Positions 1-64,000 are shown, counted from the stretch's first letter. The stretch: 64,000 nucleotides of DNA from an uncultured Acidobacteriota bacterium (GCA_963786615.1 CAWAZT010000014.1:438344-502343), one strand, 5' to 3'. The notes: a model not told the origin generated them from the sequence alone. Program-made: numbers and translations.

Positions 1-84
1 GCCCCACTTCCGCTCGCCCGCGCTCGGCGGCCCGGCTGCGCCGGGCTACACTCCGTCGCCTCGCGCGAGCCGCAGGCGCTCTGC

Positions 85-969
85 CTACAGCGCTTGCGCG
101 CCGGACACGACCTCGATGATCTCTCGCGTAATGGCCGCCTGTCTGACCTTGTTCATGTACAACGTCAGCTGCTCCAGCATGTCGGCCGAGTTCCGCGTCG
201 CGGCGTCCATTGCCGTCATCTGCGCGGCGTAGAAAGCGGCGTTCGATTCGAGGAGCGCTCGAAACACCTGCACCTCGACGTGGCGCGGCAGAAGCGTGGT
301 GAAGAGCTCCTGCGGAGTGGGCTCGTAGAGATAGTCCACGGTTGGCCCCTCGGTCGCGCCGGGCGACGGTCCTTCGATGTCGAGCCGCGGGATCGGCAGC
401 AGGCGCTCGAGCACGATGCGCTGCTGGAGGACCGACTTGAACTCGTTGTACACGAGATACACGCTGTCGACGCGCCCCTCGACGAACTCCTCGATGGCGG
501 CCTGGGCGATGTCGCGCGCGTGATCGAACTGCAGCGCCTGGAACAGGTTCACCTGCTCGTATCGCACCTCGAAGCCCCGGCGCGCGAAGAAGTCGCGCCC
601 GCGCCGGCCGATCAGGCCCAGCGCGACCTGACGTCCGGCGTCCTCGGTAATGAAGTTGCCGGCCGCCTTGATCGCGTTCGTGTTGAAGCTGCCGCAGAGA
701 CCGCGGTCGGCTGTGATCACGAAGAGCAGGACCTTGCCGCCCGCGCGCTTCTCGAGCCGCTCGTCGAGCAGCGGGTGCGACCCGGGATCGACCCGCGTGG
801 CCAGGCTGTTCAGGACGCGCAGCATCTGCGTGGCGAAGGGACGCGCCTGCTGAATACGCTCCTGCGCGCGACGCAGACGCGACGCGGCGACCATTTTCAT
901 GGCCTTCGTGATCTGCTGCGTCGACTTGACCGCTCGGATCCGGCGTCGGATGTCCAGTAACGACGGCAT
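85..969 (-). CDS. atpG: F0F1 ATP synthase subunit gamma
   Basis: 294-aa ORF; N-terminus MPSLLDIRRRIRAVKSTQQITKAMKMVAAS is the canonical gamma-subunit start; lies after atpA in operon order. Confidence 0.9.
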   Translation of the reverse strand: MPSLLDIRRRIRAVKSTQQITKAMKMVAASRLRRAQERIQQARPFATQMLRVLNSLATRVDPGSHPLLDERLEKRAGGKVLLFVITADRGLCGSFNTNAIKAAGNFITEDAGRQVALGLIGRRGRDFFARRGFEVRYEQVNLFQALQFDHARDIAQAAIEEFVEGRVDSVYLVYNEFKSVLQQRIVLERLLPIPRLDIEGPSPGATEGPTVDYLYEPTPQELFTTLLPRHVEVQVFRALLESNAAFYAAQMTAMDAATRNSADMLEQLTLYMNKVRQAAITREIIEVVSGAQAL

Positions 970-975
970 GGTGTC

Positions 976-2505
976 TTATGCGGCGGCGGTCTTCTGCGCG
1001 GCCGAGAAATCCTTCCCGAACTCCTCCAGCGCCGCGTTGAGCTCGGGCTTGAGCTGGTCGTCGATCTGCTTCTTCTCGGCGAGCGACGAGAGGAGCTGCG
1101 ACTTGCGCGTGTCGAGGAACTTGTAGAGCTGCTCTTCGTAGGCTCGAAGGGCCTCGACCGGCACCGGGTCCAGATACCCGTTGGTGGCCGCGTAGATGAT
1201 CGCGACCTGCTTCTCGACCGCGAGCGGCTGGTACTGCGGCTGCTTCAGGATTTCGACCAGGCGGCGGCCGCGATTGAGCTGGTTGAGCGTCGCTTTGTCC
1301 AGGTCGGATCCAAACTGCGCGAACGCCGCGAGCTCCCGGTATTGCGCCAGGTCGAGCCGGAGCGTGCCGGCCACCTGCCGCATCGCTTTCACCTGCGCCG
1401 ATCCGCCGACGCGCGACACGGAGTTGCCGACGTTGATCGCGGGTCGCACACCCTGGTGGAACAGATCCGCTTCGAGGAAGATCTGGCCGTCGGTGATCGA
1501 GATCACGTTGGTCGGGATGTAGGCCGAGAGATCGCCCGCCTGCGTCTCGATGATCGGCAGGGCCGTCAGCGAGCCGCCGCCGAGCTCCTTCCGCAGCTTC
1601 GCAGCGCGTTCGAGGAGACGGGAGTGGAGATAGAAGACGTCGCCGGGGTACGCCTCGCGACCTGGGGGCCGGCGAAGCAGGAGGGAAATCTCACGGTACG
1701 CCTGCGCGTGCTTCGAGAGGTCGTCGTAGATGCACAGCACATGGCCGCCATTGTCCCGGAAGAACTCTCCAATCGTGCAGGCCGAGTACGGGCTGATGTA
1801 GAGCAGCGGCGCAGGATCGGACGCGCCGGCCGCCACCACGATCGTGTACTCCATCGCGCCCGCTTCCTCGAGCGTCCGCACGACCTGCGCAATCGTGGAC
1901 TGCTTCTGTCCGATCGCGTTGTAGATGCAGACGACGTTCTGCCCCTTCTGGTTGATGATGGCGTCGACAGCGACCGCAGTCTTGCCGGTCTGTCGGTCGC
2001 CGATGATCAACTCGCGCTGACCCCGGCCGATCGGCACCATCGCGTCGATGGCCTTCAGTCCAGTCTGCAGCGGCTCCTTGACCGGCTGGCGATCCACGAC
2101 GCCTGGCGCGATCCGCTCGATCGGCATCGACTGTTGCGACACGATCGGGCCCTTCCCGTCGATGGGTCGGCCCAGCGCGTTCACGACACGGCCCACGAGC
2201 TCGTTGCCGACCGGGACCGACATGATGCGCTTCGTGCGCTTCACGGTGTCCCCTTCGCGGATTTCCGTGAAGTCGCCCAGCAGCACCGTGCCGACGCTGT
2301 CCTCTTCCAGATTCAGCGCGATGCCGAACACGTCGTGCGGGAACTCGAGCATCTCGCCGGCCATCGTCTTCTCGACGCCGTGCACACGCGCGATGCCGTC
2401 GCCAACCGATACGACCGTGCCGACTTCGGCGACGTCGACGTCGACGGCATAGCTGCCGATCTGGTCGCGGATGATCTTTGAGATTTCTTCGGCTCTTATG
2501 TCCAT
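976..2505 (-). CDS. atpA: F0F1 ATP synthase subunit alpha
   Basis: 509-aa intact ORF with the alpha-subunit nucleotide-binding region ([18 protein letters not shown]); 6-nt gap to atpG. Confidence 0.92.
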
Positions 2506-2556
2506 ATTTTCCCGCGCTCGCTTCTTTACCTTCTACCTTCTGCCTTCTGCGCGCGC

Positions 2557-3108
2557 CTACTGACCGCCTTCGATCAGCGCGTCTTTCATCCTGCTCAACT
2601 GCGTCGTCACGCTGCCGTCGTAGATAGTGCTGCCGAGGCGCGTGACCACGCCGCCGATGATCGCAGGGTCGACTCTGGATTCGAGGATGACCCTGCGGCC
2701 GGTGGCTTTCTCCAGCCCTTGTTCCAGCAGGCGCAGTTTCTGGGCGTCGAGCGCGACGGCGGTCGTCACGCTGCCGCGGATGATGCGCTGGTGATCCAGA
2801 AGGCGTTCCTGATAGGCAGACGCGAGATCGGAGAGCAGCACGAGGCGATCCCGCTCCGCCAGCAGCAACACCAGCTTCGAGAGCGGGGGCGAGAACGGCC
2901 CGACGCGCTTGAGCAGCGATGTGACCAGCGCCGCTTTGCGCGCCCCAGGAATCGCCGGGTTCGCGAAGACGCTGGTGAGGGCTTCGTGCGATTGCACCAG
3001 GCCGACGAAGCCATTCAGCTCGTCGCCGATCTTCGAGACGTCCGACTCGCGTAAGGCGACGTCGAACAGGGCACGCGCGTAACGGCTCGCGGCGGCGTGC
3101 CGGGTCAC
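2557..3108 (-). CDS. atpH: F0F1 ATP synthase subunit delta (OSCP)
   Basis: 183-aa ORF with delta/OSCP-like N-terminus (AASRYARALFDVA); start overlaps atpF stop (ATGA). Confidence 0.8.
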   Translation of the reverse strand: MTRHAAASRYARALFDVALRESDVSKIGDELNGFVGLVQSHEALTSVFANPAIPGARKAALVTSLLKRVGPFSPPLSKLVLLLAERDRLVLLSDLASAYQERLLDHQRIIRGSVTTAVALDAQKLRLLEQGLEKATGRRVILESRVDPAIIGGVVTRLGSTIYDGSVTTQLSRMKDALIEGGQ

Positions 3109-3764
3109 AGGCCCGTCTCCTTCAACTGCGCGGCGTATCGATCGACGAGCCGCACCTGGTCGTCCGGCGTGATCGTTTGCGTGATTCGCTGGGTCGCCAC
3201 GGCAACCGCTTGCGTCGCGGCGAACTCGAGCAGCTGCCGCTTCAGGACGCGCGCGTGCAGCTCGATCTCGCGCCGCGTCTGGTCGAGCAGACGCAGACGT
3301 TCGGTTTCAGCAGCTTCTTCGATCCGCCCACGCTCCGCGGCAATTTCTTCCGCGCCGCGCTGCTTCAACGCGGCCAATTCTCCGGGCAGGGTGCTCAGCT
3401 TGGTTTGAATCTCGGCGTGCAGCCGATTCGCGGTCTCCCGCGTCATCGCCGCCGTGACCAGATCTTCGCGGACCTTCGTGATGCGTGAATTCAGGTAGAC
3501 GGTCAGCGGCTGCCGGAGGAAGTAGACGAGCACGCCGACCAGCACGGCAAAGTTGAATATCTTCGCGATGGTGGGGAGCCAGCCGCTCTCGTGCGCGTGC
3601 TCACCGTCGGTTGCTTCCGCGTGACCCGCTTCGTGCTGTGGCGCTGCGGCGGGAGCCTCCTGGCCGGCCCGAACGGCGTGGGTCGTGACACCAAGCGCCA
3701 GCACGAGCAGCAGGGCTGCCAGCGTGCGGGTCACGATTGGTGTGAGCCGAGAGTCAGATCTCAT
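3105..3764 (-). CDS. atpF: F0F1 ATP synthase subunit b
   Basis: The listed 3105..4280 ORF is an over-extension. The real protein most likely starts at the ATG at 3764 (MRSDSRLTPIVTRTLAALLLVLALGV...): single N-terminal TM followed by a long charged coiled coil typical of b subunits. Confidence 0.7.
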   Translation of the reverse strand: MRSDSRLTPIVTRTLAALLLVLALGVTTHAVRAGQEAPAAAPQHEAGHAEATDGEHAHESGWLPTIAKIFNFAVLVGVLVYFLRQPLTVYLNSRITKVREDLVTAAMTRETANRLHAEIQTKLSTLPGELAALKQRGAEEIAAERGRIEEAAETERLRLLDQTRREIELHARVLKRQLLEFAATQAVAVATQRITQTITPDDQVRLVDRYAAQLKETGL

Positions 3765-3814
3765 GGGTGATGAGGCAGCAGGCCGCAAACTCGAATGGAA
3801 ACCAGCGTCCCGGT

Positions 3815-4240
3815 TCAGGACGCCTTTCGCCCCAGAACACGCTCGGCCGCCGCGGCGCCGAGCACCTGTGCGTCGGCCTCGAGCCGGCGCCTGGCCTCTT
3901 CGGCTTCGGCCTGCAGTTCGCGCGAGGCCCTGGCAACGGCGGCTGCGGCTTCCGCACGCGTCGCCGCCACGATTTCTGCCTTCCGCGCATCGGCCGCGCG
4001 ACGCATCTCGTCCATCTGTTGATAAATCTCCGCGCGCGCCGCCGTTGTTTTTCGATCGAGCTCCTCCGAAGCAGCCTGCGCGTCCGCTGCCGACCGCCGT
4101 GCGAGCTCGCGTGCCGAATCGATCGCTTCCTCGCGCTTTCGGATGACCTCGAGGACCGGCCGCAACAACAGCCGGTTGATCACCATCGTGAGAAAGAGAA
4201 GAAGAACGATGACCCAGATGACGGATAAATTCGGGAGCAC
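3815..4240 (-). CDS. ATP synthase subunit b' (second b-type stalk subunit)
   Basis: ORF 3815..4288 with LPNLSVIWVIVLLLFLTMVINRLLLRPVLEVIRKREEAIDSA, the classic b/b' TM plus coiled coil; probable GTG start near 4240 (VLPNLS...). Confidence 0.65.
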   Translation of the reverse strand: MLPNLSVIWVIVLLLFLTMVINRLLLRPVLEVIRKREEAIDSARELARRSAADAQAASEELDRKTTAARAEIYQQMDEMRRAADARKAEIVAATRAEAAAAVARASRELQAEAEEARRRLEADAQVLGAAAAERVLGRKAS

Positions 4241-4302
4241 AGCGCCTCGTTTGTTGCCGTTCTGCCGGGCCCTTCGGCACCCGGACAAAACATCAATTTA
4301 TA

Positions 4303-4381
4303 CCATCACACAGCACAGGTTCTCAAGGTTCTCGGTTCTCTCGTTCTCGGGTTCAGGTTCTCAGGTTCTCGAGGTTCCCGT
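4303..4381. promoter_or_regulatory. Putative atpF'FHAG promoter: TATAAA -10-like box preceded by 7-8 tandem GAGAACC (GGTTCTC) repeats
   Basis: Seen directly: ggttctcaaggttctcggttctctcgttctcgggttcaggttctcaggttctcgaggttccc at 4318-4378; on the gene strand this reads ...gagaacc x7...ggTATAAAttg just upstream of the b' start. Confidence 0.4.
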
Positions 4382-5413
4382 CTACGAGACGCGAACGCAC
4401 GGGGCACCCGCCGCGGCGCGCCCGATGGTCCATGCCGGCACACCGCGCTGAGCGAACGCGTCGAGGGCGGCGTCGAGCGCGGGGGCGGCAATGGCGACGA
4501 GCAACCCACCCGATGTCTGCGGATCGAACAGGAGCTGCACCTGGCGGCTGTCCGCACCAGCGTCCGCCTGGAAATACCCGCGGACGTACGCCTCATTCGT
4601 TCGAGCCCCGCCGGGCGTATTCCCTTCGAGGAGATCCATCGCGCCTGGGAGCACGGGGACACTTGCCGCCTCGATCTCGACGATACAGCGGCTGGCGCGG
4701 GCCATTTCCGAGGCGTGTCCGGCAAGGCCAAATCCGGTGACGTCCGTGCAGGCGTGGACGACGGCTGGCGGAAGCGTGGATAGGGCTGCGGCCGCCGCCC
4801 GATTGAGGGTGGTCATCGATTCGATAGCGGCATCCGCGGCTGACGCGGGTGCGCGATCGAACTTGATCGCTGTGGCAATGACGCCCGTCCCGATCGCCTT
4901 GGTCAGCACCAGCCGATCGCCGTCCTGCGCGCCGGCGTTCGTCCAGACCCGATCCGGATCCACCTCGCCGGTCACGGCATACCCGAACTTGATTTCCTGG
5001 TCCTGCACCGTGTGGCCGCCAAGCAGCGCGGCGCCAGCCTCGCGAAGGATCTCCAGCCCGCCGCGAAAGATCGTCGCGAGGACGGTCGCGTCTCCGTCTC
5101 GCGGAAATGTCGCCACGGCCAACGCCGTCAGCGGCCGCCCGCCCATGGCGTAGACATCCGACAAGGCATTTGCCGCGGCAATGCGCCCATACGTGACGGG
5201 GTCGTCGACAATCGGCGTGAAGAAATCGACGGTCTGCACCAACGCGCGCCGCTCATCCAACCTGAAGATCCCCGCATCGTCGGCGGTCCGGTAGTCGACG
5301 AGCACGCGGGAGTCGGATCCGAGAGGGAGCTCAGCGAGCACGTGGGCCAGCTCCCCAGCGGCGAACTTGCTGGCGCAACCGGCACAGGCCGCGTAGTGGG
5401 TGAGTTTCTTCAT
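4382..5413 (-). CDS. selD: Selenide, water dikinase (selenophosphate synthetase), Cys-type
   Basis: 343-aa ORF with N-terminal LTHYAACAGCASK (Cys at the Sec/Cys position) and FFTPIVDDP...GRIAAANALSDVYAMGG motifs of SelD/AIR-synthase family. Confidence 0.85.
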   Translation of the reverse strand: MKKLTHYAACAGCASKFAAGELAHVLAELPLGSDSRVLVDYRTADDAGIFRLDERRALVQTVDFFTPIVDDPVTYGRIAAANALSDVYAMGGRPLTALAVATFPRDGDATVLATIFRGGLEILREAGAALLGGHTVQDQEIKFGYAVTGEVDPDRVWTNAGAQDGDRLVLTKAIGTGVIATAIKFDRAPASAADAAIESMTTLNRAAAAALSTLPPAVVHACTDVTGFGLAGHASEMARASRCIVEIEAASVPVLPGAMDLLEGNTPGGARTNEAYVRGYFQADAGADSRQVQLLFDPQTSGGLLVAIAAPALDAALDAFAQRGVPAWTIGRAAAGAPCVRVS

Positions 5414-5424
5414 TGGGCCGCCGG

Positions 5425-6273
5425 CTAGGTTCGGTCCGTCAGCTGCTCGAAGATGCGCTGCAGCTCGTCCTCGTTCGTGAACTCGATTTCGAGTCGTCCG
5501 CCCTTGCCCTTGCGCACGATTCGGACACGCGTACCGAGCGCGATCCGCAACCGATCCTCGGCCGCGCGCGTGTGGACGTCCTTCACGGGCTCAGGCTTCG
5601 AGGGAGCGGGCTGCTGCGCCTTGCGGATGAGCGCCTCGGTTTCGCGCACGGAGAGGCTCGACGCGACGATGACTCGGGAGAGCTGGAGTTGGCGTGCTTC
5701 GTCGCCAATGCCGAGCAGCGCGCGCGCATGGCCCATCGACAATGCGCCCGACGCGAGGTTGGCGCGCACTTCCTGGGGCAGCCGAAGCAGCCGGACGTAG
5801 TTGGCGATCGACGATCGATCCTTGCCGACGGCGTCGGCGATCTGCTCCTGCGTGAGCTGGAAATCGTCCACGAGCCGGCGATATGCGTGGGCTTCTTCGA
5901 TCGGATTCAGGTCTTCGCGCTGAATGTTCTCGATGAGCGCGACCGCCAGCAGCTGGTCCTCAGGAATGTCACGAACGACCACGGGAACTTTGAGGAGACC
6001 GACGCGCTGCGCCGCCCGCCAGCGGCGTTCGCCGGCCACGATCTCGTAGCCACCGTCGACGCGCCGGACCACGATCGGCTGGATGATGCCGTTGGATCGA
6101 ATCGAGCGCGACAGGTCATCGATCCGCGCATCATCGATGTGCGTGCGCGGCTGAAACTTGTTGGGCCGCAGCAGATCGGTGTCGACGTCGAGCGCCCGCT
6201 CGGGAGCCGTCAGAGGCGCGTCGGGAATGAGCGCGCTCAGTCCTCGTCCGAGCGCCGGCCGCTTTTCAATCAT
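5425..6273 (-). CDS. parB: Chromosome partitioning protein ParB (Spo0J)
   Basis: 282-aa ORF with ParB box GLSALI..., LRPNKFQPR, IIQPIVVRR; overlaps parA by 8 nt. Confidence 0.88.
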   Translation of the reverse strand: MIEKRPALGRGLSALIPDAPLTAPERALDVDTDLLRPNKFQPRTHIDDARIDDLSRSIRSNGIIQPIVVRRVDGGYEIVAGERRWRAAQRVGLLKVPVVVRDIPEDQLLAVALIENIQREDLNPIEEAHAYRRLVDDFQLTQEQIADAVGKDRSSIANYVRLLRLPQEVRANLASGALSMGHARALLGIGDEARQLQLSRVIVASSLSVRETEALIRKAQQPAPSKPEPVKDVHTRAAEDRLRIALGTRVRIVRKGKGGRLEIEFTNEDELQRIFEQLTDRT

Positions 6274-7075
6274 GGTGGGGCTCCGTCGCCGCGGACAACG
6301 CGGCGGTTTCGCGCGCGAGCAATTCGCGCGCGAGCGACAGATAGGCTTCGGCGCCGCGAGACTTCACGTCGTAGAGAATGCCCGGCAGGCCGTGGCTGGG
6401 CGCCTCACCGAGCCGGATGTTGCGCGGGATCACGGTATCGAAGACCCGATCCTGAAAGAACTGGCGGATGTCGCGCGACACCTGCTGACCCAGGTTCGTT
6501 CGCTCGTCGTACATCGTCATCAGGACGCCCGCGATATCGAGGGACGGGTTCAACGCGCCGCGGACACGCCGAAGCGTCGCCACGAGATCCGCGAGACCCT
6601 CGAGAGCGAAGTACTCGCAGTTGAGCGGAATCAGCACCGCGTCAGCCGCCACGAGAGCGTTCAGCGTCAGCAAACCGAGCGACGGCGGCGTGTCGATGAA
6701 GATGAACTCGAACCGATCGCGCAGCGATTCGAGCACATGGCGAAGGCGGCGCTCCCGATTCGGCAGCAGCACGAGCTCGACCTCCGCTCCCGTCAGGTTG
6801 CGATCGGCAGGCATCAGCCAGAGATTTCTGACGCGGGTGTCGAGCAGAAACCCCGAAGCGTCGTCGATGGGCTCACCGGTCAGGGCTTCGTAAATCGTCC
6901 CCGAGGCGGCCGCCCGACCTTTCAGGCCAATGCCACTCGTCAGGTTACCCTGCGGGTCCATGTCGACCAGGAGGACACGCTGTTCCGCTAAAGCCAATGC
7001 TGTCGCGACGTTAATGGCTGTCGTCGTCTTGCCGACGCCCCCTTTTTGATTGGCAACCGCCAGAATACGTGCCAT
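6266..7075 (-). CDS. parA: Chromosome partitioning ATPase ParA (Soj)
   Basis: 269-aa ORF with deviant Walker A KGGVGKTTTAINVATALA. Confidence 0.9.
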   Translation of the reverse strand: MARILAVANQKGGVGKTTTAINVATALALAEQRVLLVDMDPQGNLTSGIGLKGRAAASGTIYEALTGEPIDDASGFLLDTRVRNLWLMPADRNLTGAEVELVLLPNRERRLRHVLESLRDRFEFIFIDTPPSLGLLTLNALVAADAVLIPLNCEYFALEGLADLVATLRRVRGALNPSLDIAGVLMTMYDERTNLGQQVSRDIRQFFQDRVFDTVIPRNIRLGEAPSHGLPGILYDVKSRGAEAYLSLARELLARETAALSAATEPHHD

Positions 7076-7156
7076 GTTTTGGTTGATTGACCTATTGAAG
7101 ATCCTTGCGGGGCATGATCAGGGTAAGTCAGGCGTGAGGGGTAATCAAGTGCCGTA

Positions 7157-7172
7157 TGTTCCACGTGGAACA
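7157..7172. promoter_or_regulatory. parS centromere site (TGTTCCACGTGGAACA)
   Basis: Perfect 16-bp palindrome matching the parS consensus TGTTNCACGTGNAACA, in the 100-bp gap between rsmG and parA. Confidence 0.7.
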
Positions 7173-7176
7173 TCCG

Positions 7177-7812
7177 TCAAGCCGGTATCAAGACCTGCAG
7201 GCTGCTTCTCGTTGACTGCAGAAGAGAATAGGCGTCCATCAAGTGAAATCCTGCGGTGAAGAAATCGCTGCGCGGTTGTCCGCTCGAGAACAATGCAAGC
7301 CGACCTTCTGGGGCGATAAAGCTCTTCAGTTTGATAAAGACGACGGGGTCAAGCCTGACGGCTCGGACGGAAATCAGTGGTTGCGGACCGCCGACGTCGG
7401 CGACCGACAGCGACTCCAGCCGAGCGGCCTCAACTCGGGCAGGAATCGCGAGTTCCCTGGCGGCCTCCCTGAGGAATGAGGCTTTCCTCGAATTCGATTC
7501 CACCATCACCAGAGAAGTGACGCCGAGAGCGATCGCCAACGGAATTGCCGGGGACCCGCCACCGGAGCCAATGTCCAGGAGCTGTGATTGGGAAGGGAGG
7601 TGACGGGCGGCGGCGAGCGGCTCGAGCAGCAGTCGGTCGATCGCATCGTCCACATTACGGAGGGATGTCAGATTGATGGTCCGATTCCAGTGTTCCAGAA
7701 GAGCATAGTAGGCTGCCAGACGAGACGCGACGAGGGGATCGAGGTCCAGCGCCGCCTGGGACGACCGCTCGGCAAGCCGCTGAAGCAAATCGGACGCGGA
7801 CATCCGTCGAGG
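7177..7812 (-). CDS. rsmG: 16S rRNA (guanine527-N7)-methyltransferase RsmG (GidB)
   Basis: C-terminal ~210 aa of ORF 7177..8664, beginning [10 protein letters not shown]...[18 protein letters not shown] (SAM-binding motif); the upstream part of that ORF is really mnmG, run in by a frameshift. Confidence 0.8.
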
Positions 7813-53192: not shown

Positions 53193-54499
53193 TTACGCCT
53201 CGACCTCCTGCGGAGGAGACACAATGAGCGAGGCGATCTGGTCGTTTTCCACGGCCTCGATCTCGACCGCGAGGCCGCGAACGGTGAGCTCCTCGCCGGG
53301 CTCGGGAAGCCTGCCGGCCTCGTGCAGCACGAACTCGCCGACCGTGCCGCCGTCCTGCGGCCAGGCGCCGTCGATCCACACCCGGGCGCGATCGAGGGGA
53401 AACGCTCCTGGCAGCCTGACGCGTCCGTCAGTCAGGCGCAGCGGCAGCAGCCGCTGACCCTTGAGCTCGTCGGCCACGTTCCCGAGCAGCTCGCCGAGCA
53501 CGTCCTCGAGTGTGATGAGACCCGCGACACGGCCCGCACGATCGGCCACAATCGCCTGATGGCTCCGCCGCTCGCGCAGAAAGGCGAGCAGCCGATCGGC
53601 CGGCATGGTGTCGGGCACTCGAGGAATCGGCCGTACGAGCGTCGCAAGCGATCCCGCGGCTCCTTGATCGACGAAGTGCAGCACCGCATCTTTCGTATGC
53701 AGGATGCCGACGATATCGTCGAGCGTGTTGCGGAAGAGCGGGAGGCGACTGTAAGGGCTCGACGCGACGACGCGCATCACATCAGGCATGGCCGTCGCGA
53801 GGTCGAGCGCAGCCAGGCGTTCACGCGGCACCATCAGCTGACGGGCGTTTCGCAGGCCGAGCCTGAGCGCACGATGCAGCCGCACCTGCTCCTGCGGCTC
53901 GAGCAGGCCGCCGTCGCGACTCTCGGCGATGAGGAGCGCAATCTCCTCGGGTGAATGCACGTGACGATGACCCGTGCTCGGGAGCCGGAGCGCACGCAGG
54001 ATGACGAGCGCGCTGCCGTTGAGGAGCGCAATCAGCCAGGCGTACGCGCGAAGCGACCACTCCATCGGAAGCAACGGTGAACAGTGCCGCCTGGGTTGGA
54101 TACTGCAGCGCGATCGCCTTCGGCACGAGCTCGCCGAGGATGACCGACAGGACCGTGAGCACGACGAGAAAGATGGCCGCCGAGACCTCGAGGGCCGTGT
54201 GCTCGTCGAGCCGCGTCCAGCGCGTCAGGAGCGGCGTGGCCCACGGGGCCAGGATGGCGCGCGCATACGCGCCGAGAATCAGGCTGGAGAGCGTGATGCC
54301 GACCTGGGAGGCGGCGATATAGCGATCGAGCGCGGCGCGGCGAATCGAGGACAGGCAGCAGGCGCGCCGCGAGCGGACTGCCGTCCTCGGCCATCCGTCG
54401 CAACCGGCTCCGGCGGGCGCCAACAGCAGCGAACTCGGCCGCTACATACAGCGCCGTGAGCGCGATGAGCAGCAGGATGACGCCCGCAGCCACCAGCAT
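53193..54499 (-). CDS. Second CorC/HlyC (DUF21-CBS-CorC_HlyC) paralogue (2 frameshifts)
   Basis: MLVAAGVILLLIALTALYVAAEFAAVGARRSRL (54032..54604 frame), ...ILGELVPKAIALQY (53821..54423), CBS plus CorC_HlyC ...QAIVADRAGRVAGLITLEDVLGELLG...LTVRGLAVEIEAVEND (53193..54074). Confidence 0.65.
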
Positions 54500-54611: not shown

Positions 54612-57038
54612 CAGTCTGATCACTCCGCCCGCAGGGCGACCGCGGGATCCACCCGTGTCGCTCGCAGGCCAGGTACCGACTGCGGCTGCAGCGGCGATCA
54701 CCGCCAGGAGAGTGGCGACCAGCGCGAACGTCACAGGATCGGTCGGACGCACCCCGTAGAGCAGGTTGCGCATCAACCCGGTCAGGAGCGCCGCACCGAC
54801 CCCGCCGATCAGGATGCCCGCGGCCGCGAGCGTCAGTGCCTGACGAAGCACCATCGACAGCACGTCGGATTGGCGTGCGCCGAGCGCCATGCGAATGCCG
54901 ATCTCCTGGGTGCGCTGCGAGACCGTGTAGCTGATCACGCCGTAGATGCCGACGGCGGCGAGCAGCAGCGCGATACCCGCAAACACTCCCAGCAGCATCG
55001 TCGTCAGCCGCCGTTGCGCGACCGAGGTGTCGCGAACCTCGGTCATCGTGCGCACGTCAGCGACGGGCACGTTTGGATCGAGCTCGTGCACGCGCGCCGT
55101 TGCAGCCGGGACGATGGCGCTGACTTCTCCTGCCGCGCGGATGGCGACCGTCATCCAGGGATAGGCGAACCGTGCAGGAGGCCAGTAGATCGACGGCCGG
55201 ACTTCCTTTTCGAGCGTCTCCTGCCGGACGTCGCCCACGACGCCGATGATTTCGTCCGGACCCGGATCGTTCCAGTACACGGAAATCCGCTGGCCGATCG
55301 GATCCTCGTTGGGCCAGTACTTCCTCGCCATGCTCTCGCTGATGATGACCTTTCGTGCTGTGGCCCCGCGCTCTTCGGCGCCGAACAACCGGCCGCGCAC
55401 CAGGCGGATTCCCATCGCGCGGAAGAAGTCGTGCGTGACTACGCGGACGTCGGTCACCGGTTCCTGGCCGACCGGCGGTTTCGGGCGCCCGATGATTTCG
55501 AAGTCCGTCGCAGCGCCAAGACCGTTCAACGGCAGGAAGCTCGTTCCGCCCGCAGCTTGCACACCGGGGATCGCGTCGATCTGCTCGAAGAGCTGGTCGT
55601 AGAAGCCGCGAATCTTCTGGGGCGTTTCGTACTTCGATTGGGGAATCGAGACCCGCATCGTGATCGTGTGGGACGGATCGAATCCGGGGTCCACGCTGAG
55701 AAGAGCGCTGAAGCTGCGGATCAGCAGGCCCGCGCCGACCAGCAGCACGAGCGCGAGTGCCACTTCGACCACGACGAACGCGTTCCGGGCACGAGCGCCA
55801 CGAGCGCCCGTACCTCCGCGTCCGCCTTCCTTGAGTGCGTCCGTCAGCGTGGTCCGCGCCGCCGTGAGGGCCGGGAAGAGTCCGAACGCAAGGCCGCTGA
55901 CGAGCGTTGCGACGAGCGTGAACACCAGCACACGCGAATCGACGGTGACAGCCTCGAGCCGAGGAATCGGCAGTTGTTTCGCGACGACGCTCCGCAGACC
56001 AAGCGTCGTCCACCATGCGAACAGCAGACCCGCGGCACCGCCCGTGGTGGACAGCAACAGACTCTCGGCGAGGAGTTGTCGGACGAGTCGTCCACGCCCG
56101 GCGCCGAGCGCCGCGCGCACCGCGATCTCGCGATGACGCGCCGTCGCGCGCGCGAGCAGCAAATTCGCCACGTTCGCACACGCGATGAGCAGCACGAATC
56201 CCACCGCGACGAGCAGGACGAACAACGCCGGCCGCACGTCACCGGTCAGCTGATCGGTCAGGCTCACGACCCTGGCGCTCCAGCCGGTGTTGAAGTCAGG
56301 AAACATCCGCGTCAGCTCCGCGTGAACCCGTGTCATATCCTCCTGCGCCTGGGCAACCGTGATTCCCGGTCGCATCCGTGCGACGGTCATGAGCCAGCGG
56401 CCGCGAGGCGTACGGGCATCGGGTTTGAACCCGATCGTCTGCCAGATATCGATCGTCCTGTCGAGAATCGAAAACCCTGGCGGCATCACGCCGATCACGA
56501 TTTGCGACCGGCCGTCGAGTTGAATGGGCTGATTGATGATCTTCGGGTCCGCACCGAAGCGTCGCCGCCAGAGCCCGTCGCTGATCATCACGACGTTCGC
56601 GGACGGGTCGTCGTCTCCCGGCTGGAACAATCGTCCCTGTTGCGGCGGCACGCCCATGATGGGAGACACCGCCGCTGTGACGTATTGCACCGGAAGTTCT
56701 TCCGGCGCGCCGCCGCCGCCCGTGATGGTGGTCTTGAACGTCAGGCTGACCGCCGCAATGTCCTCGAACGAATGGTTCATCTCGCGCCAGTGCAGGAAGT
56801 TGCCGGGCGAGACGACGTTGTCCTTGCGGTCGGTCGGCAGGTGGTGCTCCCACACGATGACGAGCTTCGACGGATCCTTGTAGGGAAGCGGTTCGAGCAG
56901 CAGCGTGTTGACGACGCTGAAAATCGCCGTGTTCGCGCCGATCCCGAGCGTCAACGCCGCGAGTGCGATGCACGTGAATCCCGGCGAGCGAAGCAGCAGG
57001 CGCGCGGCGAACCGGAGGTCCTGCCAGAGGACGGCCAT
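54612..57038 (-). CDS. MacB/FtsX-type duplicated permease, copy 2 (single frameshift at the extreme C-terminus, ~54665)
   Basis: ...[52 protein letters not shown]...; two FtsX domains; correct C-terminus [19 protein letters not shown] by a 1-nt shift; ATG 5 nt after the copy-3 stop. Confidence 0.8.
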
Positions 57039-57042: not shown

Positions 57043-59514
57043 CTATTCACTCCTGAGAACGGTCAGCGGGTCGACGCGTGACGCCCATCGCGCGGGCACG
57101 ACGGTCGCCGCCGTCGCGACGACGACGAAAAATACCGCGACGCTGACAAAGGTGAGCGGATCCGTGGCGGTCACGCCAAACAACAGCGTCCGCAACACGC
57201 GTGTGAAAGCGAAGGCCGCGCCGAGACCGAGCACGAGGCCGCTCAGCGTCAGCACAGCGCCATCGCGCAGGACGAGCCGGAGGACCGTTCCCGGTCCGGC
57301 GCCGAGCGCCATGCGAATCCCGATTTCCTGGCGCCGCCGCGCAACGCGATAGCTCAGCATCCCGTGGATGCCGATACCGGCAAGCAGCAGGCCAGTCGCC
57401 GCGAACGCCCCGAGCAGCATCATGATGAACCGACGTTGCGAGACCGATCGCGAGAGCGTCACGTCCAGCGGCTCCAGCCCGAACACCGCAAGCCCGGGAT
57501 CAACCGCACGAATCGTCGATCGCACGGACCCGGCGAGCCCGGACGGATCGCCGCTGGTGCGAACGAGCAGCACGCCGGCGCCGTTTGCGGACGGCGTCTG
57601 CGACAACGGTGTGTACGCGGCGATGGGAGCGGATTCGACCAGGCCATGGAATCGCTCGTTCGCGACGACGCCGACGATCGTGCGTGAGGTTCCCCAGAAG
57701 CGGATCTGATGGCCGAGCGGATCGGTCTTTCCGAAGAACCGCTGTGCCGCCGTCTCGTTGAGCAGAATCACCGGCGCGCTGGTTGTGGTGTCGCCCGGCT
57801 CGATGAGTCGTCCGCGTACGAGCGCCAGGCCGACGGTGCGGAAGTAGCCGCTCGTCACACGGCGGACGGAAATCTCCGGCCATGTGCGCGACTCGGCTTC
57901 GCGCCCGACGACCGCGAAGGAATTGGTGAAGCCGGGATCCAGCGGGTGGTTCCCGGCGATGGCCGCGGATTCGACACCCGGCAAGGCTTCAGCGCGCGCG
58001 AGGAGCGCGCGATCGAACGCATGCTGTTCTCGAAAATCGGGCCATCGGCGGAAATCGACCGGGTAGCGCGCGGGCGGAAGCTGGAACTCCGCCTTGAGGA
58101 CGCCGTGCGACTGGAACCCCGGGTCCACGGCTTGCAGCCGCCAGAAGCTCTTGATCAGCAATCCGGCGCTGCACACGAGAAGCAGCGCGAGCGCCAGCTC
58201 CGCCACGACAAGGCTCTGCTGCAGGCGTCCGCTTCCGCGACTCGCGGATGCGCGGACGGTCGCGTCCTTCAGCGGATCCTGTGTCGAGAACCGCTCCAGG
58301 TGAATCGAGGGGATGATGCCGAACAGAAAAGCGACAACGATGGACACGCCCGCGGTGACTGCGAGCACCGCAGGATCGACCGCCGCGGCGTCGAGGCGTG
58401 GCACGTCGGCCGGTGCAAGCGCGACGATCGCGCGGACACCCAGGAAGGCGAGCCCCACGCCGATCGCGCTGGCGGTTGCCGTGAGCACCGCGCTTTCGGT
58501 GACGAAGAGTCGCAGCAGCGTCGCGCCGCCTGCTCCAAGCGCCCGGCGAACAGCCACTTCGTGCGCACGCGTGTCGCCACGCGCGAGCAGCAGGTTGGCC
58601 ACATTGACGCAGGCGACGATCAGCACGAGGGCGACAGTGGCAAGCAGGACGTACAGCGCGGGCCGTACCGGCCCGAAGATCACCCGCGTCAGCGACTCGA
58701 CGTTCGTTCCGCGCGCCGCATTGTCCGGAAAGCTCTTCTCGAGGTCCGCGGCGATGGCACCGATTTCCGCCTGCGCCGCGCCGATCGTCGCGGCCGGCGC
58801 GAGCCTGCCGATCATCAGCAAGGGATGAGTAGAGCGCGGCAACTGCGCCGCGTCACCCTGCAGCGGCAGCCAGATGTCCACCTGCGCGCGTTCGCCGCGA
58901 TCGGCAAATGCGCGCCCGTAGGCGGCAGACGTGAGGACCTGCAGAATCCCGAAATCAGCCTCTGGCGGCATCACCCCGACAATGGTCCATGGCGTGTCGT
59001 CGAGCCGCAGCGTGCGTCCGATCGCTCCAGGATCGCGCCTGAACTCGCGCTGCCAGAGCGCGTCACTGATCAGCGCGACCGCAGGTCCGCTCTTCGCATC
59101 CTCGGCGGGCGTGAACACGCGGCCTGCGATGGGCTTGATGCCGAGCAATGGAATCAGCTCGTGCGATGCATGCAGCACCGGCACGCGCCGCGGATCGCCC
59201 TGCCCGGGACTCAGGTTCATCTCGTCGGCGATGAACCCGCCCATCGCGGCCATCGTCCGCGACTGCCGCTGAATGTCTTGAAAGTCCGGCCAGGATCCCG
59301 GCTCGCGCGTCGTCCCCGTGTTGCGATCGGTCTCCCACACAACCGCAAGACGTTCGGGTTCCGAAAACGGCGGCGGCGCGAGCAGCACGGCGTGGACGAC
59401 GCTGAAGATCGCGGTGTTGGCGGCAATCCCCAGCGCAATCGTCGCAATGACCACGATGGTGAAGAGGGGGGCCTTCAGGAGTGACCGGACGGCGAAGCGC
59501 AGGTCAGATAGCAC
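57043..59514 (-). CDS. MacB/FtsX-type duplicated permease, copy 3 (intact, 823 aa)
   Basis: [50 protein letters not shown]...ends ...[16 protein letters not shown]; same architecture as copies 1 and 2. Confidence 0.85.
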
Positions 59515-59640: not shown

Positions 59641-60508
59641 GACTTGCGACCACCCGCCGATGGCGCCGAGCGCCCAGGCGGCCTGGCGGCGGACGCGCGC
59701 GTCGGTGTCTTTCAGCGACTTCGCAAGCGGCGCGGAGGCTCGGTGATCTCCGATCGCGCCCAATGCCCACGCGGCCTGTTCCCGCACCGACGCCACATCG
59801 TCGCCCAGGGCCGCGACCAGCGCGTCGACGGCGCCGCGATCGCCGATCGCGCCCAGTGCCCACGCCGCCTGATGGCGGGCTTTCGCGTCGGCATCCTTCA
59901 GCAGCGCCGACAGCGACGGCACCGCTCGGCGATCGCCGATGGCGCCCAGGGCCCATGCCGCCTGCTCACGAACGGCGGGTTCGGCATCCTTCAACGCGTC
60001 GATCAGCGCGGGCACCGCGACGTCGGCGTCGAGCGCGCCCAGCGCCCACGCGCTCTCCTTTCTGACGGCCGCCTCTCCGTCGTGCAGCGATCCCGAGAGG
60101 AGCGGCGCGGCGTCGCGATTTCCCAGCGCGCCGAGTCCCCATGCGGCGTTCTTTCGCGCGATCCAGACGGGCGCTTTCAGCGCACGCGTCAAGGGATCGT
60201 ACGCGGGACGACCGATCGCCACCAGCGCGGAGGCGGCCTGCTCGCCGGGCGACGTCGTGTCGGCGATGCCGGAGTGCCGTCCCCACGTCCGCTCACCGCA
60301 GACGTTGCCGTCAACAGGTGATCCGTCCCCGAGCAGCGCGACGAGCTGCGGTAGCGCAAAAGCGGCGTTGCTTCCGAACTCCCGCAAGTCGCACGCCGCC
60401 CGCGCGCGCGTCGGCCGGGTCGGACGAGGCCAGCCCCGCAGCCTTCGTCCGCGCGTCGCCCTGGACCGGGGCAAGGGCAATCGCACCGGCGATGATCACG
60501 GCGATCAT
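59623..60508 (-). CDS. HEAT-repeat (PBS-lyase HEAT-like) protein with N-terminal signal peptide (one frameshift at ~60490)
   Basis: Signal/TM (V)MIAVIIAGAIALAPVQG (60311..60511 frame) joins >=6 repeats of ...AAWALGAIGDRRAVP.L...LKD.... (59623..60486); GTGATGA start overlaps the upstream gene stop. Confidence 0.6.
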
Positions 60509-61323: not shown

Positions 61324-62238
61324 TTACCGGATTTGTCCCAGAGCGAACGCGGCCTGCTGACGAACAGAGGCGTTGGCGTCCTTGAGCGCAGCGGTCAGCG
61401 CGTCGATCGCGCGTGCATCGCGAATCTGCCCGAGCGCAAACGCGGTCTGCTCGCGCACGTCGACGTTGGCGTCCTTCATCGCGATCACCAGCGCCTCGAC
61501 GGCGCGCGAGTCGCGCAGCTGTCCGAGCGCGAACGCGGCCTGCTCGCGCACGTCGGGCTTGGCGTCCTTCAGCGCCGCGATCAGCGGATCGACCGCACGG
61601 CGATCGCGGATCTGCCCGAGTGCGAACGCGGCCTGCTCGCGGACGCTGTCGTTCGCGTCGTGCAGCGCGCCAGCCAGCGCGTCAACCGACGAGACGTCGC
61701 GGATCTGTCCGAGCGCGAAGACCACTTGTTCCCGCACGTCGGCGTTGACTGTCCTTGAGTGCCGCCGCCAGCGCGCCCACCGCGGACTTGGCTCTGATTT
61801 GTCCGAGCGCGAACGCCGCCTGCTCGCGGACGTCAGCGCTCGCATCCTGGAGCGCCGCCGTCAGGGGGTCGACCGCGCGCTGATCACGAAGCTGGCCGAG
61901 GCCGAACGCCGCCTGCTGGCGGATGTTTGCATCGGCGTCTTTCAACGCCGACGTCAGCGGTTCGTACACTCGCGGATCGCGCATCTGCGTCAGGGCAGAG
62001 AGTGCGGTCTCGCGGACTTCCTTGTCGGAATCCTTGAGCGCTTCGATCAGCGCGCTGACGGTCCGCGGATCGTTCGCGTGCGACCGCTCCTTCTCCTCAC
62101 CCTGTGCGGCCGCGGCGTCGGCCACATGTCCGGCCACGCTCTCGACCATGCTGCCGACGACGCCAGCGGCCATGCCGGTGCCGACGCCGGTCGCGATGCC
62201 TTGCGACACGCCCTGCGCGACGCCTTGTCCGACTTCCA
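61324..62238 (-). CDS. HEAT-repeat protein (one frameshift at ~61760), Gly-rich N-terminus; possibly the C-terminal domain of the upstream M56 protein
   Basis: MEVGQGVAQGVSQGIATGVGTGMAAGVVGSMVESVAGHVAD... then ...ALIEALKDSDKEVRETALSALTQMRDPRVYEPLTSALKDADANIRQQAAFGLGQLRDQRAVDPL... (61682..62239) continuing in 61324..61845. Confidence 0.55.
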
Positions 62239-63505
62239 TGCGACATCCCCTCGGCCACGGCGTGGGGCATTTCCTTGCCGGCCGTGTGCCACTCCGACTC
62301 CGGGACTTTCGCGCTCATCGGTGACGTCGCGGGCGCCGGCGCCGGGGTCGGCGCCTCCGCTGACGGTGCAGGTATCGGTTGCGGAGTCTGCGCGGAGGCC
62401 GGAATCGGCACGACGTCCGCGGTTTTCACGGCCGCGCGCTCCTCGGCCCAGGGCTGCACCGACGCAACCGGGACCAGCACGACGGCGAACACGCCCGCAG
62501 CAATGGCCGCACGAAGGCGCGTGAGACCGCGGCGAGGTACGGTCGGATCGAGAATCGCGATCAGCCGTCCCTCGAGTTGGGAGCGATGCGCCATCGCGAG
62601 TGAGGCGCCGGCGAGGACGGCGGGGAAGCGGCCCGGCGTTCATGACGCGCGCAATTTCCAGCAATTGATTCGCGTAATCAGCGCCGCGCGTGCCGGCGGC
62701 AAGGACGAGATCGTCGCACGCACGCTCGCGCTCCGCCCGGAGTCGACGAACGGCCATCCACGCCAGCGGATTGAACCAGTACGCCGCGCACGCCAGCTGC
62801 GCGAAGAGGTGCGTCAGGCAGTCGCGGCGCTTCACGTGTGCGAGCTCGTGCAGCAGCACGATGCGCAGCCGCTCATCGGGCCAGCTGTCGGCGTCCGCCG
62901 GCATCAGCACGGACGGACGCAGGATGCCCCACGCCATCGGCATGGAGGCCGCTCCGGTGCGGAGAAAACGAACGCGCGAGAGGCCGAGATCGCGCGCCAA
63001 CTCCCGCGCCTGCGCCAGCCAGGGCGCGTCGGTCACGAGCGCCGTGCGACGCGACATCCATTGGACGGCGACGAGTCCCACGAGCATGCGGCCGATGATC
63101 AGGAGCGCCCCGATCGACCAGATCAGCAGCAGGGACGTTGACCAGCTCGGAAGCGCGCGCACCGTGCTGCGTCGGCTTCGGAGGGTCCCGTGCCCGCAAC
63201 CGCATCGTTCGTCGTCGTCGGCGTCCGGTGATGCGCAATCGCGGGTGGCGCCGGCGCCGGAGTCGTCGCGGGCGGTGTGCGCGACCGTCTCGGTGCTGAA
63301 CCGGACCAGCGGCACTTCCCAGCGAGGAAGCGCCAGCGCGAGCGCCGGGACGATCAGCGCGCCCATCAGCCCGAGCGTCCAGATCATGTGGCGTGCGGCC
63401 GCCGACGCGCGCCGGAGCACCGTCGCGATCAGCCCGGTCGCCGCCAGGATGAGAGAGGCCTTGACGATGGCGTCGAGGATCGACAGTTTGCTGTAACGCG
63501 TGCAT
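62239..63505 (-). CDS. BlaR1/MecR1-like M56-family peptidase signal transducer (frameshifted; C-terminal boundary uncertain)
   Basis: N-terminal TMs LSILDAIVKASLILAATGLIATVLRRASAAARHMIWTLGLMGALIVPALALALP...; metalloprotease motif RIVLLHELAHVKRRDCLTHLFAQLACAAYWFNPLAWMAVRRLRAERERACDD; then TM plus Pro-rich linker (AVVLVPVASV...PIPASAQTPQPIPAPSAEAPTPAPAPA) in frame 62097..62594. Confidence 0.7.
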
Positions 63506-63507
63506 CA

Positions 63508-63873
63508 CTACACCCCGCTCTTCCGCGCGCCGTCGATCAGCGTCGCCAGGCGGTCGAGCTCGTCGTTCGACAGCCGCGTGGAGGGCTCGTCGAGCAGGGC
63601 CGAGATCGCCTGCTCCGCGGAGCCATCGAAAAAGGTTTGAAGGATATGGCGGAGCGCCGAGCGCTTCGCGTTGTCGCGTGCCACCGTAGGGAGATAGACG
63701 TAACGGGGCCCGTCTTGTTCGTGGCGGATGTGGCCCTTCTCTTCCAGAATACGCAACAGCGCGCGTACGGCGGAGTAGCTCGGCGGTTCAGGCAGGTCTG
63801 TCTGCACCTCGGCGGCGGTGGCGCGCCCCTTCTGGTAGAGGATGTCGAGAATCTGCCGTTCCCGGCGACTCAA
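63508..63873 (-). CDS. BlaI/MecI/CopY-family transcriptional repressor
   Basis: 121-aa intact ORF MSRRERQILDILYQKGRATAAEVQTDLPEPPSYSAVRALLRILEEKGHIRHEQDGPRYVYLPTVARDNAKRSALRHILQTFFDG; its stop (TAG) is 2 nt from the M56 gene start. Confidence 0.8.
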   Translation of the reverse strand: MSRRERQILDILYQKGRATAAEVQTDLPEPPSYSAVRALLRILEEKGHIRHEQDGPRYVYLPTVARDNAKRSALRHILQTFFDGSAEQAISALLDEPSTRLSNDELDRLATLIDGARKSGV

Positions 63874-63951
63874 ATCGCGATGATGCGGTTGTGGTCATAT
63901 ATGGTCCGTCAGCCTTGGTCTCGAAGGCTTAGACGGAGCCCGGACCGAAAA

Positions 63952-63971
63952 GGTGCTACGAAAATAGCACC
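63952..63971. promoter_or_regulatory. Inverted repeat GGTGCTA-N6-TAGCACC ~80 bp upstream of the BlaI-like repressor gene (candidate operator)
   Basis: aaaGGTGCTAcgaaaaTAGCACCggg, with a further half-site-like tTTAGCAAC 10 bp away; the half-site is the same as the 9-mer unit of the gyrB-gyrA palindromic array. Confidence 0.5.
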
Positions 63972-64000
63972 GGGCTGAAAATTTAGCAACACGTGGGGTC

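Follow-up and report, generated by a model that had tools for sequence, protein, structure and literature searches.

The window analysed here is a stretch of 64,000 nt from a deposited contig of 528,498 bp (NCBI, ENA), which derives from an uncultured soil population of Vicinamibacterales (Acidobacteriota). Orthologous proteins from related contigs were compared with the window by frameshift-aware alignment, and 42 genes (52 kb) were tested by homology in this way; the genes of 1-5947, which were checked with Pfam, bring the sequence examined to 58.4 kb. Intact comparators were available in L164, L167, and L169, three contigs from JGI that belong to the species of the window (93-96% nucleotide identity to it); JGI samples 3300054979 and 3300060885 contain this species. 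Between 5947 and 23616 the sole close reference was a contig that is itself error-prone, and the polarity of the indels in this part was taken from protein alignments to short-read metagenome-assembled genomes (MAGs) with 61-91% amino-acid identity. A scan of metagenome contigs with SerS returned only relatives of at most 80% amino-acid identity, on short contigs.

The left end of the window is occupied by atpG, atpA, atpH, atpF, atpF', purM, parB, and parA (1..7075, minus strand), in which no frameshift was detectable; for 1-5947 this call was made from full-length Pfam matches only, without a close relative. The adjacent rsmG (7154..7803, minus strand) has a single doubtful difference from L081 at 7399, which is probably an error of L081 itself; two of four distant rsmG orthologues (L002 and L007) align without a frameshift. 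Two extra T residues, at 8089 and 8562, interrupt mnmG (7833..9628, minus strand), and the orthologues from four short-read MAGs (L002, L003, L007, and L011) agree on them. Three events were found in mnmE (9656..10994, minus strand), namely an extra C at 10136, another at 10423, and a missing C at 10939, where a run of six C is read as five, and three in yidC (11537..13244, minus strand), namely an extra C at 11700, a missing G at 11913, and an extra G at 12910. On the plus strand, dnaA (14349..15679) contains a cluster at 14601-14673 (extra C at 14601, missing G at 14635, missing T at 14673; net -1), which was counted as three events and represents at least one, and the distant orthologues require one net -1 shift. 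An extra G lies at 17954 in gyrB (17154..19799, plus strand), whose N-terminal extension also carries a -1 shift at about 17258 that is present in L081 as well. The only event in gyrA (20069..22544, plus strand) is an extra A at 21943; it precedes GGG and is thus not a fourth G. Also broken in this half are uvrD (22551..24826, minus strand), with an extra A at 22839 and an extra C at 23477; leuD (26981..27575, plus strand; reference JGI contig L169), with an extra G at 27385; and leuB (29962..31018, plus strand), with an extra C at 30581.

The densest cluster was found in an alpha/beta hydrolase gene (31053..32095, minus strand), which is also the gene most divergent from its relatives (12.5%). 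It has 10 events, comprising extra bases at 31072, 31293, 31374, 31730, 31957, 31994, and 32009-32011 (2 nt) and missing bases at 31524, 31863, and 32082. The following Band-7 protein gene (32125..33088, minus strand) has a missing C at 32149, an extra G at 32781, where the window reads GC and the relatives read G or C, and an extra C at 32899, where CG stands in the window and in L162 and the relatives have C or G. A GntR regulator gene (33088..33489, minus strand) has an extra GC at 33217 and an extra T at 33446. Single events were found in glmS (33664..35506, minus strand; extra G at 33752, on the coding strand CC read as CCC) and in glmU (35547..36924, minus strand; at 36438-36442). The rsmI gene (37860..38707, minus strand) has seven events, with extra bases at 37891, 37949, 37989, 38038, 38204, and 38335 and a missing C at 38133; the insertion at 38204 is common to the window and L162. 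Four events lie in the gene of a DUF885 protein (38732..40391, plus strand; extra C at 38894 and extra G at 39144, 39753, and 40171) and one in galU (40729..41617, minus strand; extra G at 40903). The serS gene (41724..43034, plus strand) is intact up to an extra A at 43009, which changes the last four codons and gives a product of 436 aa instead of 432 aa.

Further to the right, a PadR regulator gene (43168..43525, plus strand) has an extra C at 43387, and the gene of MacB/FtsX-type permease 1 (43525..46254, plus strand) has an extra T at 43668 and an extra G at 44830 and 45444. A missing C at 47430 breaks the gene of a hypothetical 296-aa protein (46612..47498, minus strand), and a methyltransferase-like gene (47873..48541, plus strand) has an extra G at 48113 and an extra T at 48414 and 48445. 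In the sodium:dicarboxylate symporter gene (48686..49968, plus strand) there is an extra G at 49226 and an extra C at 49672; at the latter site the window and L162 have GC, L168 has G, and L165 has C. Two neighboring genes encode CNNM/CBS proteins, the one (51898..53179, minus strand) with an extra G at 52190 and the other (53196..54499, minus strand) with an extra C at 54072 (window CA, relatives C or A) and at 54336. Only the last 19 codons or so of permease 2 (54623..57038, minus strand) are altered, by an extra C at 54680. Permease 3 (57046..59514, minus strand) is intact, with 823 aa and 98% identity to its JGI orthologue, and lies within a 6.1-kb stretch given as free of events (54336-60411). 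An extra T at 60411 was found in a HEAT-repeat protein gene (59653..60508, minus strand). The last gene affected encodes a repeat protein of more than 700 aa (61327..63429, minus strand) and has six extra bases, at 61748 (window AC, relatives C or A), 62233 (window CT, relatives T or C), 62635, 63166, 63177, and 63278.

Altogether, 68 frame-changing events and the doubtful one in rsmG were found in 27 of the 42 tested genes, the C-terminal event of serS at 43009 standing outside the 68. The 69 calls comprise 55 one-base insertions, 12 one-base deletions (including the doubtful rsmG call), and 2 two-base insertions. The initial annotation, which had recognized frameshifts throughout the window, is thus confirmed by homology on their reality, and all five junctions that it quoted are present, with the flanking peptides in different, abutting frames (mnmG 8560, gyrA 21943, glmS 33752, yidC 11696-11700, and glmU 36438). 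Its figure of about 45 events was an undercount, and its random error of about 0.7 per kb does not describe the data: the rate over the 58.4 kb examined was 1.16 per kb, and the spacing was non-Poisson (variance/mean 2.4-3.5; none of 5000 simulations was that extreme), with 10 events inside a single 1-kb gene and event-free stretches of 6-7 kb elsewhere. Its range of one to three corrections per gene is exceeded by rsmI (7) and by the hydrolase (10). Among the genes it listed as intact, dnaN, atpA, leuC, leuA, and permease 3 are so, and serS is so up to its last four codons. Frameshift density increased with divergence from the relatives (Spearman rho 0.41, P = 0.007), a correlation that is in part circular, as errors left uncorrected raise the divergence, and in which divergence between samples stands in for within-sample diversity.

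Other ways of counting were less suitable. Chaining of tblastn HSPs gave 41 junctions and missed closely spaced events, so the frameshift-aware alignment was used instead. A codon-model Viterbi gene and frameshift caller produced 53 frame switches, which were rejected as an event count and kept as a rough guide only, since 4-nt gene overlaps were taken for frameshifts and adjacent genes were merged. A whole-ORF GC3 filter for gene definition and a comparison of the longest open stretch before and after correction were both uninformative in this window, because at 65% GC the off-frames are open for hundreds of codons.

Considering that so many conserved genes are broken, the question is whether the breaks belong to the organism or to the record. 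We consider, at a probability of roughly 93%, that the frameshifts are consensus errors of the deposited sequence and that the genes are functional in the organism. The extra and missing bases are, almost all of them, private to this contig. In a four-way alignment of 13.9 kb the window had 27 private insertions and 5 private deletions (1-2 nt) and JGI contig L164 had 1; no frameshift was found in the JGI contigs L164, L167, and L169, while the other contigs of the species with names of the contig_N type had 0.3-1.4 frameshifts per kb, at different sites. After the 69 edits all genes aligned in one frame over 94-100% of the orthologue, and internal stops amounted to 1 in 17,405 codons, the one being in the doubtful rsmG. 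Across the break, amino-acid identity was 100% for gyrA against L081 and for glmS against L164, the DNA differing by 1.6-1.8%. Moreover, 112 of the 159 window-private substitutions past the first frameshift fell on the third codon position of the restored frame (chi-square P = 3e-22), and this share (70%) equals that in unbroken genes. Purifying selection acts on the restored frames. The idea that the window had been corrupted synthetically was rejected because frameshifted products are in the public collection: the frameshift-tailed SerS (436 aa) and GlmS (619 aa) are exact public protein entries of the 528,498-bp contig. The contig would be a metagenome assembly of modest coverage made from Nanopore reads only (Flye and Medaka), similar to the long-read MAGs of Microflora Danica (MFD), a project that also has shallow Illumina metagenomes; most of the relatives listed are such MFD long-read MAGs, and their contig names are in the Flye style.

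The same data bear on the possibility that the genes are genuine pseudogenes, really inactivated in a decaying genome or in a dead or relict population. The indels do stand in the deposited record, and four of them are common to a second contig. However, the essential single-copy genes dnaA, gyrA, gyrB, yidC, glmS, and glmU would all have been broken together, by events that are absent from relatives at 93-96% nucleotide identity, while the sister assemblies have other genes broken at other sites. No nonsense substitution was found in the 41 confidently restored genes, and the bias toward third codon positions is not weakened past the breaks. The ratio of insertions to deletions (55 to 12) is also the reverse of what is expected of decay, as Mira, Ochman, and Moran are said to have shown in 2001 that bacterial pseudogenes are deletion-biased. 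Mycobacterium leprae and recent host-restricted symbionts have pseudogene-rich genomes, and the window resembles them in that many genes are interrupted by frameshifts. In genomes of the M. leprae type, however, relaxed selection goes together with inherited lesions that spare the essential genes and occur alongside stop codons and deletions of greater size, and the window has none of these traits. Genuine inactivation is therefore extremely improbable. Biological recoding, in which programmed +1/-1 ribosomal frameshifting, transcriptional slippage, or RNA editing would restore the frames, agrees with the conservation of the restored frames and with nothing further. The sites lack a slippery run or homopolymer and are not conserved, the relatives encode the proteins in one frame, and the site contexts have no common motif, so that this explanation is more remote still and can be given next to no credence. 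Consensus error is thus the reading on which the initial annotation, which had called the indels assembly errors and not pseudogenes and had proposed a comparison with close relatives, is borne out, by the private indels, the restorable frames, the codon-position bias, the sister contigs broken elsewhere, and the intact genes of L164, L167, and L169.

As for the cause of the errors, the textbook residual error of Nanopore data is one of homopolymer length, mostly deletion, and the initial annotation had pointed to GGG and CCC sites for a check of this kind. We found that the inserted base is unlike both of its neighbors in 44 of the 55 insertions, and that only one of the 68 events, the mnmE deletion at 10939, lies in a run of at least five, despite 48 such runs in the window. 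Homopolymer miscalls (of the Nanopore, 454, or Ion Torrent type) fit 10939 (C6 as C5), 33752 and 11700 (CC as CCC), and 14601 (CCC as CCCC), but the extra base of gyrA is an A before GGG, and as the main cause they are highly improbable. Inspection of the insertion sites by eye showed no shared motif, GATC and CCWGG included. Residual Nanopore indels are known to fragment gene calls; they are assessed by tests of the IDEEL type and fixed by short-read polishing or proovframe. The window is like unpolished Nanopore assemblies in that single-base indels split conserved genes, that the rate depends on the assembly, that one-base edits restore the frame, and that the frameshifts are missing from accurate assemblies of the same species (PMC9262707). 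It differs from them in that 80% of the events are insertions and 80% of those do not adjoin an identical base.

The identity of the inserted bases points elsewhere. For 11 of the 55 insertions, a close relative has the added base as its allele at the adjoining site, as determined with 1-4 relatives per site on the corrected sequence and a multiple alignment; the null gave 2.0 ± 1.4, and 11 was not reached in any simulation. Among private insertions of the sister contigs the same match was seen in 4 of 12 (L163) and 3 of 4 (L162). In addition, the inserted base would be a synonymous alternative of a neighbor in 28 of 43 cases (18.9 expected, P = 0.005). A version of the allele-match test on gap-permissive pairwise alignments was negative (1 of 43) and was discarded as an alignment artefact, because one of the two bases in the window always gives each relative a perfect alignment. 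Since 11 of the 55 inserted bases match a relative's allele at the adjoining site where about 2 are expected, our results suggest that, for a share of the insertions, a mixed-strain consensus put the two alleles of a SNP next to each other. A consensus drawn from a mixture of strains would place the two alleles in tandem at SNP sites (e.g., GC where relatives have G or C), and such a model would account for the excess of insertions over deletions, the avoidance of homopolymers, the apparent clustering in the most variable genes, and the occasional recurrence in another assembly. It resembles the collapse of haplotypes or strains in consensus building and polishing, in that errors lie at strain-variable sites, the alternative allele is what is inserted, the most diverse genes seem to be worst affected, and a second sample of the species shows the artefact again. 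The difference is that only a fifth of the events here are demonstrably of this kind, and the link to that named artefact is our own; a literature search found no paper describing the form in which both alleles are written in tandem.

Plain stochastic error is the other candidate: in a long-read assembly of low coverage, insertion noise in a few reads would win the vote, with no strain mixture involved. It would suit the 44 of 55 insertions that match no allele in the few relatives compared, and the rates of the sister contigs, which vary four-fold as differences in coverage would make them. Errors of this sort have been linked to coverage in the literature (PMC12313526; PMC9262707): near-finished R10.4 genomes require about 40x coverage (PMC9262707), and in Microflora Danica, whose Nanopore-only data were assembled with Flye (--meta --nano-hq) and then passed once through Medaka, coding density was lower at low coverage (PMC12313526). 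Against noise as the whole explanation, about half of the insertions should extend a neighboring base; a run was lengthened by no more than 11 of the 54 insertions of one base (27.5 expected by chance). The matching of relatives' alleles at five times the chance level, the recurrence of the same base at the same site in another assembly, the overdispersion, and the apparent tracking of local diversity are likewise unexpected under it. As the sole cause, stochastic error is possible and rather doubtful. Alongside a mixed-strain consensus, the 44 insertions without a known SNP allele may simply reflect noisy reads at low coverage.

A few events are not private. Four of them, namely the insertions at 32899, 38204, and 49672 together with the -1 shift near 17258, are found again, base for base, in contig_12307, which belongs to a different ENA analysis. 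The tandem writing of alleles would cover 32899 and 49672 and does not obviously cover 38204 or 17258. That these four are segregating frameshift alleles (of the Band-7 protein, rsmI, the dicarboxylate symporter, and the GyrB N-terminal extension), or a reproducible consensus artefact that depends on sequence or modification, is improbable.

In the coding sequence of this contig and of sister contigs in the same style, frameshifts occur at roughly one per kb, and gene calls are therefore truncated, split, or fused. In the relatives, such miscalls include a "fusion" of 1083 aa in L162 and permeases that measure 539, 559, and 755 aa in place of 823 aa. Claims of pseudogenes, gene fusions, novel short ORFs, or unusual domain architectures drawn from the window are unsafe, and the caution that the initial annotation had urged toward pseudogene and fusion claims was fully justified. 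Some 80% of the errors would escape checks confined to homopolymers. Should the tandem-allele signature hold true on reads, it would offer a simple filter for this class of error in strain-mixed long-read assemblies. For the organism itself the frameshifts have no biological import, because its genes are almost certainly intact.

We counted frameshifts, taken as one- or two-base frame-changing indels, by local protein-to-DNA alignment of 90-odd orthologous proteins against the window, allowing +1, +2 and -1 shifts. The closest trustworthy reference was chosen for each gene, and nearly all events were located to the base by DNA alignment. Over the 42 genes tested there were 69 events: 55 one-base insertions, 12 one-base deletions and 2 two-base insertions. 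The event in rsmG is uncertain: the error probably lies in the related contig L081. Without it, 68 events in 27 genes remain, or 1.16 per kb for the 58.4 kb of coding sequence examined. The permease 2 event at 54680 is real and alters only the last ~19 codons, while the dnaA cluster at 14601-14673 was counted as three events, although one net shift suffices. The initial annotation, made from the sequence alone, had estimated ~45 events (~0.7 per kb), an undercount because closely spaced events were missed. The five junctions it quoted were exact, with peptides in different frames abutting at 8560, 21943, 33752, 11696 and 36438.

The events were clustered, and the uniform random error first assumed does not describe them (variance/mean 2.4 in 1-kb bins and 3.5 in 2-kb bins, reached by no simulation). 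The 1-kb hydrolase gene (31053-32095) contained 10 events and rsmI 7, versus none in 1-7399 or 54336-60411. Six were found in the gene of the 700-aa repeat protein (61327-63429), four in that of a DUF885 protein, three each in mnmE, yidC, dnaA, Band-7, permease 1 and methyltransferase, and two each in mnmG, gyrB, uvrD, GntR, symporter and CNNM-b. Single events occurred in gyrA, leuD, leuB, glmS, glmU, galU, PadR, CNNM-a, permease 2 and the genes of a 296-aa protein and a HEAT protein. Based on homology, parA, jag, rnpA, rpmH, dnaN, leuC, LysR, leuA, permease 3 and the genes of the TPR, zinc-ribbon, 637-aa and 249-aa proteins were intact; atpG, atpA, atpH, two atpF genes, purM, parB and a BlaI-like repressor were judged intact by full-length Pfam matches only. 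The genes initially called intact thus stood (dnaN, leuC, leuA and permease 3 by homology, atpA by its Pfam match), except that an insertion at 43009, outside the 68, alters serS in its four final codons.

Several repeats and neighbouring features were recorded as well. Within coding sequence, HEAT-like tandem repeats with a 93-nt (31-aa) unit occur at 59836-60051 and 61343-61959. The 700-aa protein has up to 6 copies, and the frameshift at 61748, one of that gene's six, lies inside the array. The tandem ATP synthase b-type subunit genes (~3105-3600 and 3815-4288) do not reflect a frameshift; each matches PF00430 nearly end to end, and they form a normal atpF/atpF' pair. The gap at 4289-4381 between the second of them and purM (4382-5413) contains the 8-nt tandem repeat CAGGTTCT (7.9 copies, 4316-4377). 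Three close nonamers TTTTCCACA at 14203-14234, ~120 nt upstream of dnaA, differ by one mismatch from TTATCCACA; judging from sequence, these DnaA-box-like elements are probably part of the dnaA promoter or origin region. The gyrB-gyrA spacer (19809-20059) contains an array of ~9-nt units, with AGCACCTTT ~12 times at 19959-20058 and GCTGAAGGTGCTG twice at 19812-19836, and its unit number is unlike that of L081. The stretch at 24878-25563, for which neither L081 nor L169 gave an alignment, looks like a strain-variable islet; its 23S-rRNA-intervening-sequence protein family gene (24923-25528) has only 45% identity to the same-place gene in L169, and the flanks carry short tandem repeats (GATGGCG, 5.7 copies at 24870-24909; a 14-mer, 4.3 copies at 25503-25562).

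The references were independent same-species sequences, all with gene calls. They included contig_12307 (L081, L162 and L166; ENA analysis ERZ25039464; window 5947-27064 and 31706-64000) and two further contigs with names of the contig_N style (L163, 31701-47611; L168, 47238-64000), all at 95-96% nucleotide identity. JGI/IMG contigs were L164 (96.1%, 31689-45550), L169 (94.8%, 23616-33535) and L167 (93.1%, 55146-63430), and a JGI contig, L165, was more distant (82%, 34599-53408). Four short-read MAGs (L002, L003, L007 and L011; ~81%) covered the dnaA region. In 5947-23616, where the sole close reference is itself error-prone, polarity was taken from these four mutually agreeing MAG orthologues. 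Neither the JGI contigs nor the short-read MAGs have a broken gene in the region; each gene there is one ORF. Sister contigs contain a public gene call of a 1083-aa "fusion" (L162 17975-21226), joining the 637-aa gene to antisense sequence of the CNNM gene, and permease-3 calls of 539, 559 and 755 aa versus 823 (L166 10001-12077; L168 10001-12474), because of their own errors.

Our results support the initial reading that the frameshifts are artefacts of the deposited assembly, not pseudogenes. When 13.9 kb were aligned across four sequences, private 1-2 nt indels comprised 27 insertions and 5 deletions in the window, 12 and 7 in L163, 4 and 1 in L162, and one deletion only in L164. After the 69 edits every gene aligned in a single frame to 94-100% of its orthologue (38-97% before in affected genes), with one stop in 17,405 codons, located in the doubtful rsmG. 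GyrA and GlmS were 100% identical to relatives across the breaks at the protein level, with a DNA difference of 1.6-1.8%. Among the window's own substitutions (sites where the three other sequences agree), 112 of 159 downstream of the first frameshift fell at codon position 3 of the restored frame (P = 3e-22). This share was 70% downstream of breaks, 72% upstream and 74% in unbroken genes, and being undiminished it indicates that the lineage evolved under selection on uninterrupted frames. Insertions exceeded deletions by ~5:1, whereas real bacterial pseudogenes show a deletion bias. Moreover, the broken genes include dnaA, gyrA, gyrB, yidC, glmS and glmU, which cannot all have been lost together.

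Homopolymers, where the initial annotation had proposed to look, do not explain the errors: 44 of 55 inserted bases were unlike both neighbours, and 11 of 54 insertions extended a run versus 27.5 by chance (0 of 5000 simulations gave so few). The window has 48 runs of at least 5 bases, and a single event fell in one of them (10939, C6 read as C5). Classical homopolymer error was therefore rejected. At 32781 local alignments give GC in the window, G in L162 and L169, and C in L164; at 32899 CG is common to the window and L162, against C or G in other relatives. Pairs of this kind are also seen at 61748 (AC), 62233 (CT), 54072 (CA) and 49672 (GC). To judge from these comparisons, the two alleles of a SNP seem to stand one behind the other in the contig at such sites. 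After correction of the sequence, 11 of 55 inserted bases matched the allele that one or more close relatives have at the adjoining site, versus 2.0 +/- 1.4 expected; no simulation reached this count, which is a lower bound with one to four relatives per site. The same signature appeared in private insertions of L163 (4 of 12; null 0.31) and L162 (3 of 4; null 0.12). In 28 of 43 non-run insertions the added base would make a synonymous alternative to one of its neighbours (18.9 expected, P = 0.005), and frameshift density correlated with divergence from relatives (rho 0.41, P = 0.007) in a partly circular test. The insertions beyond these 11 may be of the tandem-allele kind or plain low-coverage noise.

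Four events (32899, 38204, 49672 and a -1 shift at ~17258) were common base for base to the window and contig_12307, from a separate ENA analysis, and that at 31957 to the window and L163; given the rates measured, coincidence by chance can be neglected. Those at 32899 and 49672 fit a mixed-strain consensus writing both alleles side by side, with both samples polymorphic for the SNP concerned. A real allele, or alternatively a reproducible artefact, is possible only for the other pair, 38204 and ~17258. The gyrB N-terminal extension is open from the ATG at 17154 and reaches the conserved core only via a -1 shift in the context GCGGCGCGG, also present in L081 (window 17154-17290; L081 11220-11370); the shift is an artefact that recurs or else a genuine change, in which case the start would be a GTG further downstream.

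The G+C content of the window is 65%, and its DnaN assigns it to the Vicinamibacterales (Acidobacteriota); the relatives listed there are metagenome-assembled genomes, many of them "MFD...bin" long-read MAGs with contig_N contigs. Other contig_N contigs of the species had frameshifts of their own (0.3-1.4 per kb), the JGI contigs none. The Microflora Danica long-read study was Nanopore-only, using Flye --meta --nano-hq and one Medaka round without short-read polishing, and its low-coverage MAGs had reduced coding density (PMC12313526); according to the same group, near-finished R10.4 assemblies need ~40x coverage (PMC9262707). We infer that the window fits a Nanopore-only, Flye/Medaka-type contig of a strain-mixed soil population. 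Exact-sequence look-ups placed its proteins on one 528,498-bp contig in NCBI and ENA, and the public entries of SerS (436 aa) and GlmS (619 aa) already bear frameshifted tails. Thus, the window is a faithful piece of the deposited record and the indels are part of that record. The biological interest is low, with some practical value as a warning on the deposited assembly, and SNP-allele insertions are a possible diagnostic signature of errors in strain-mixed long-read assemblies.
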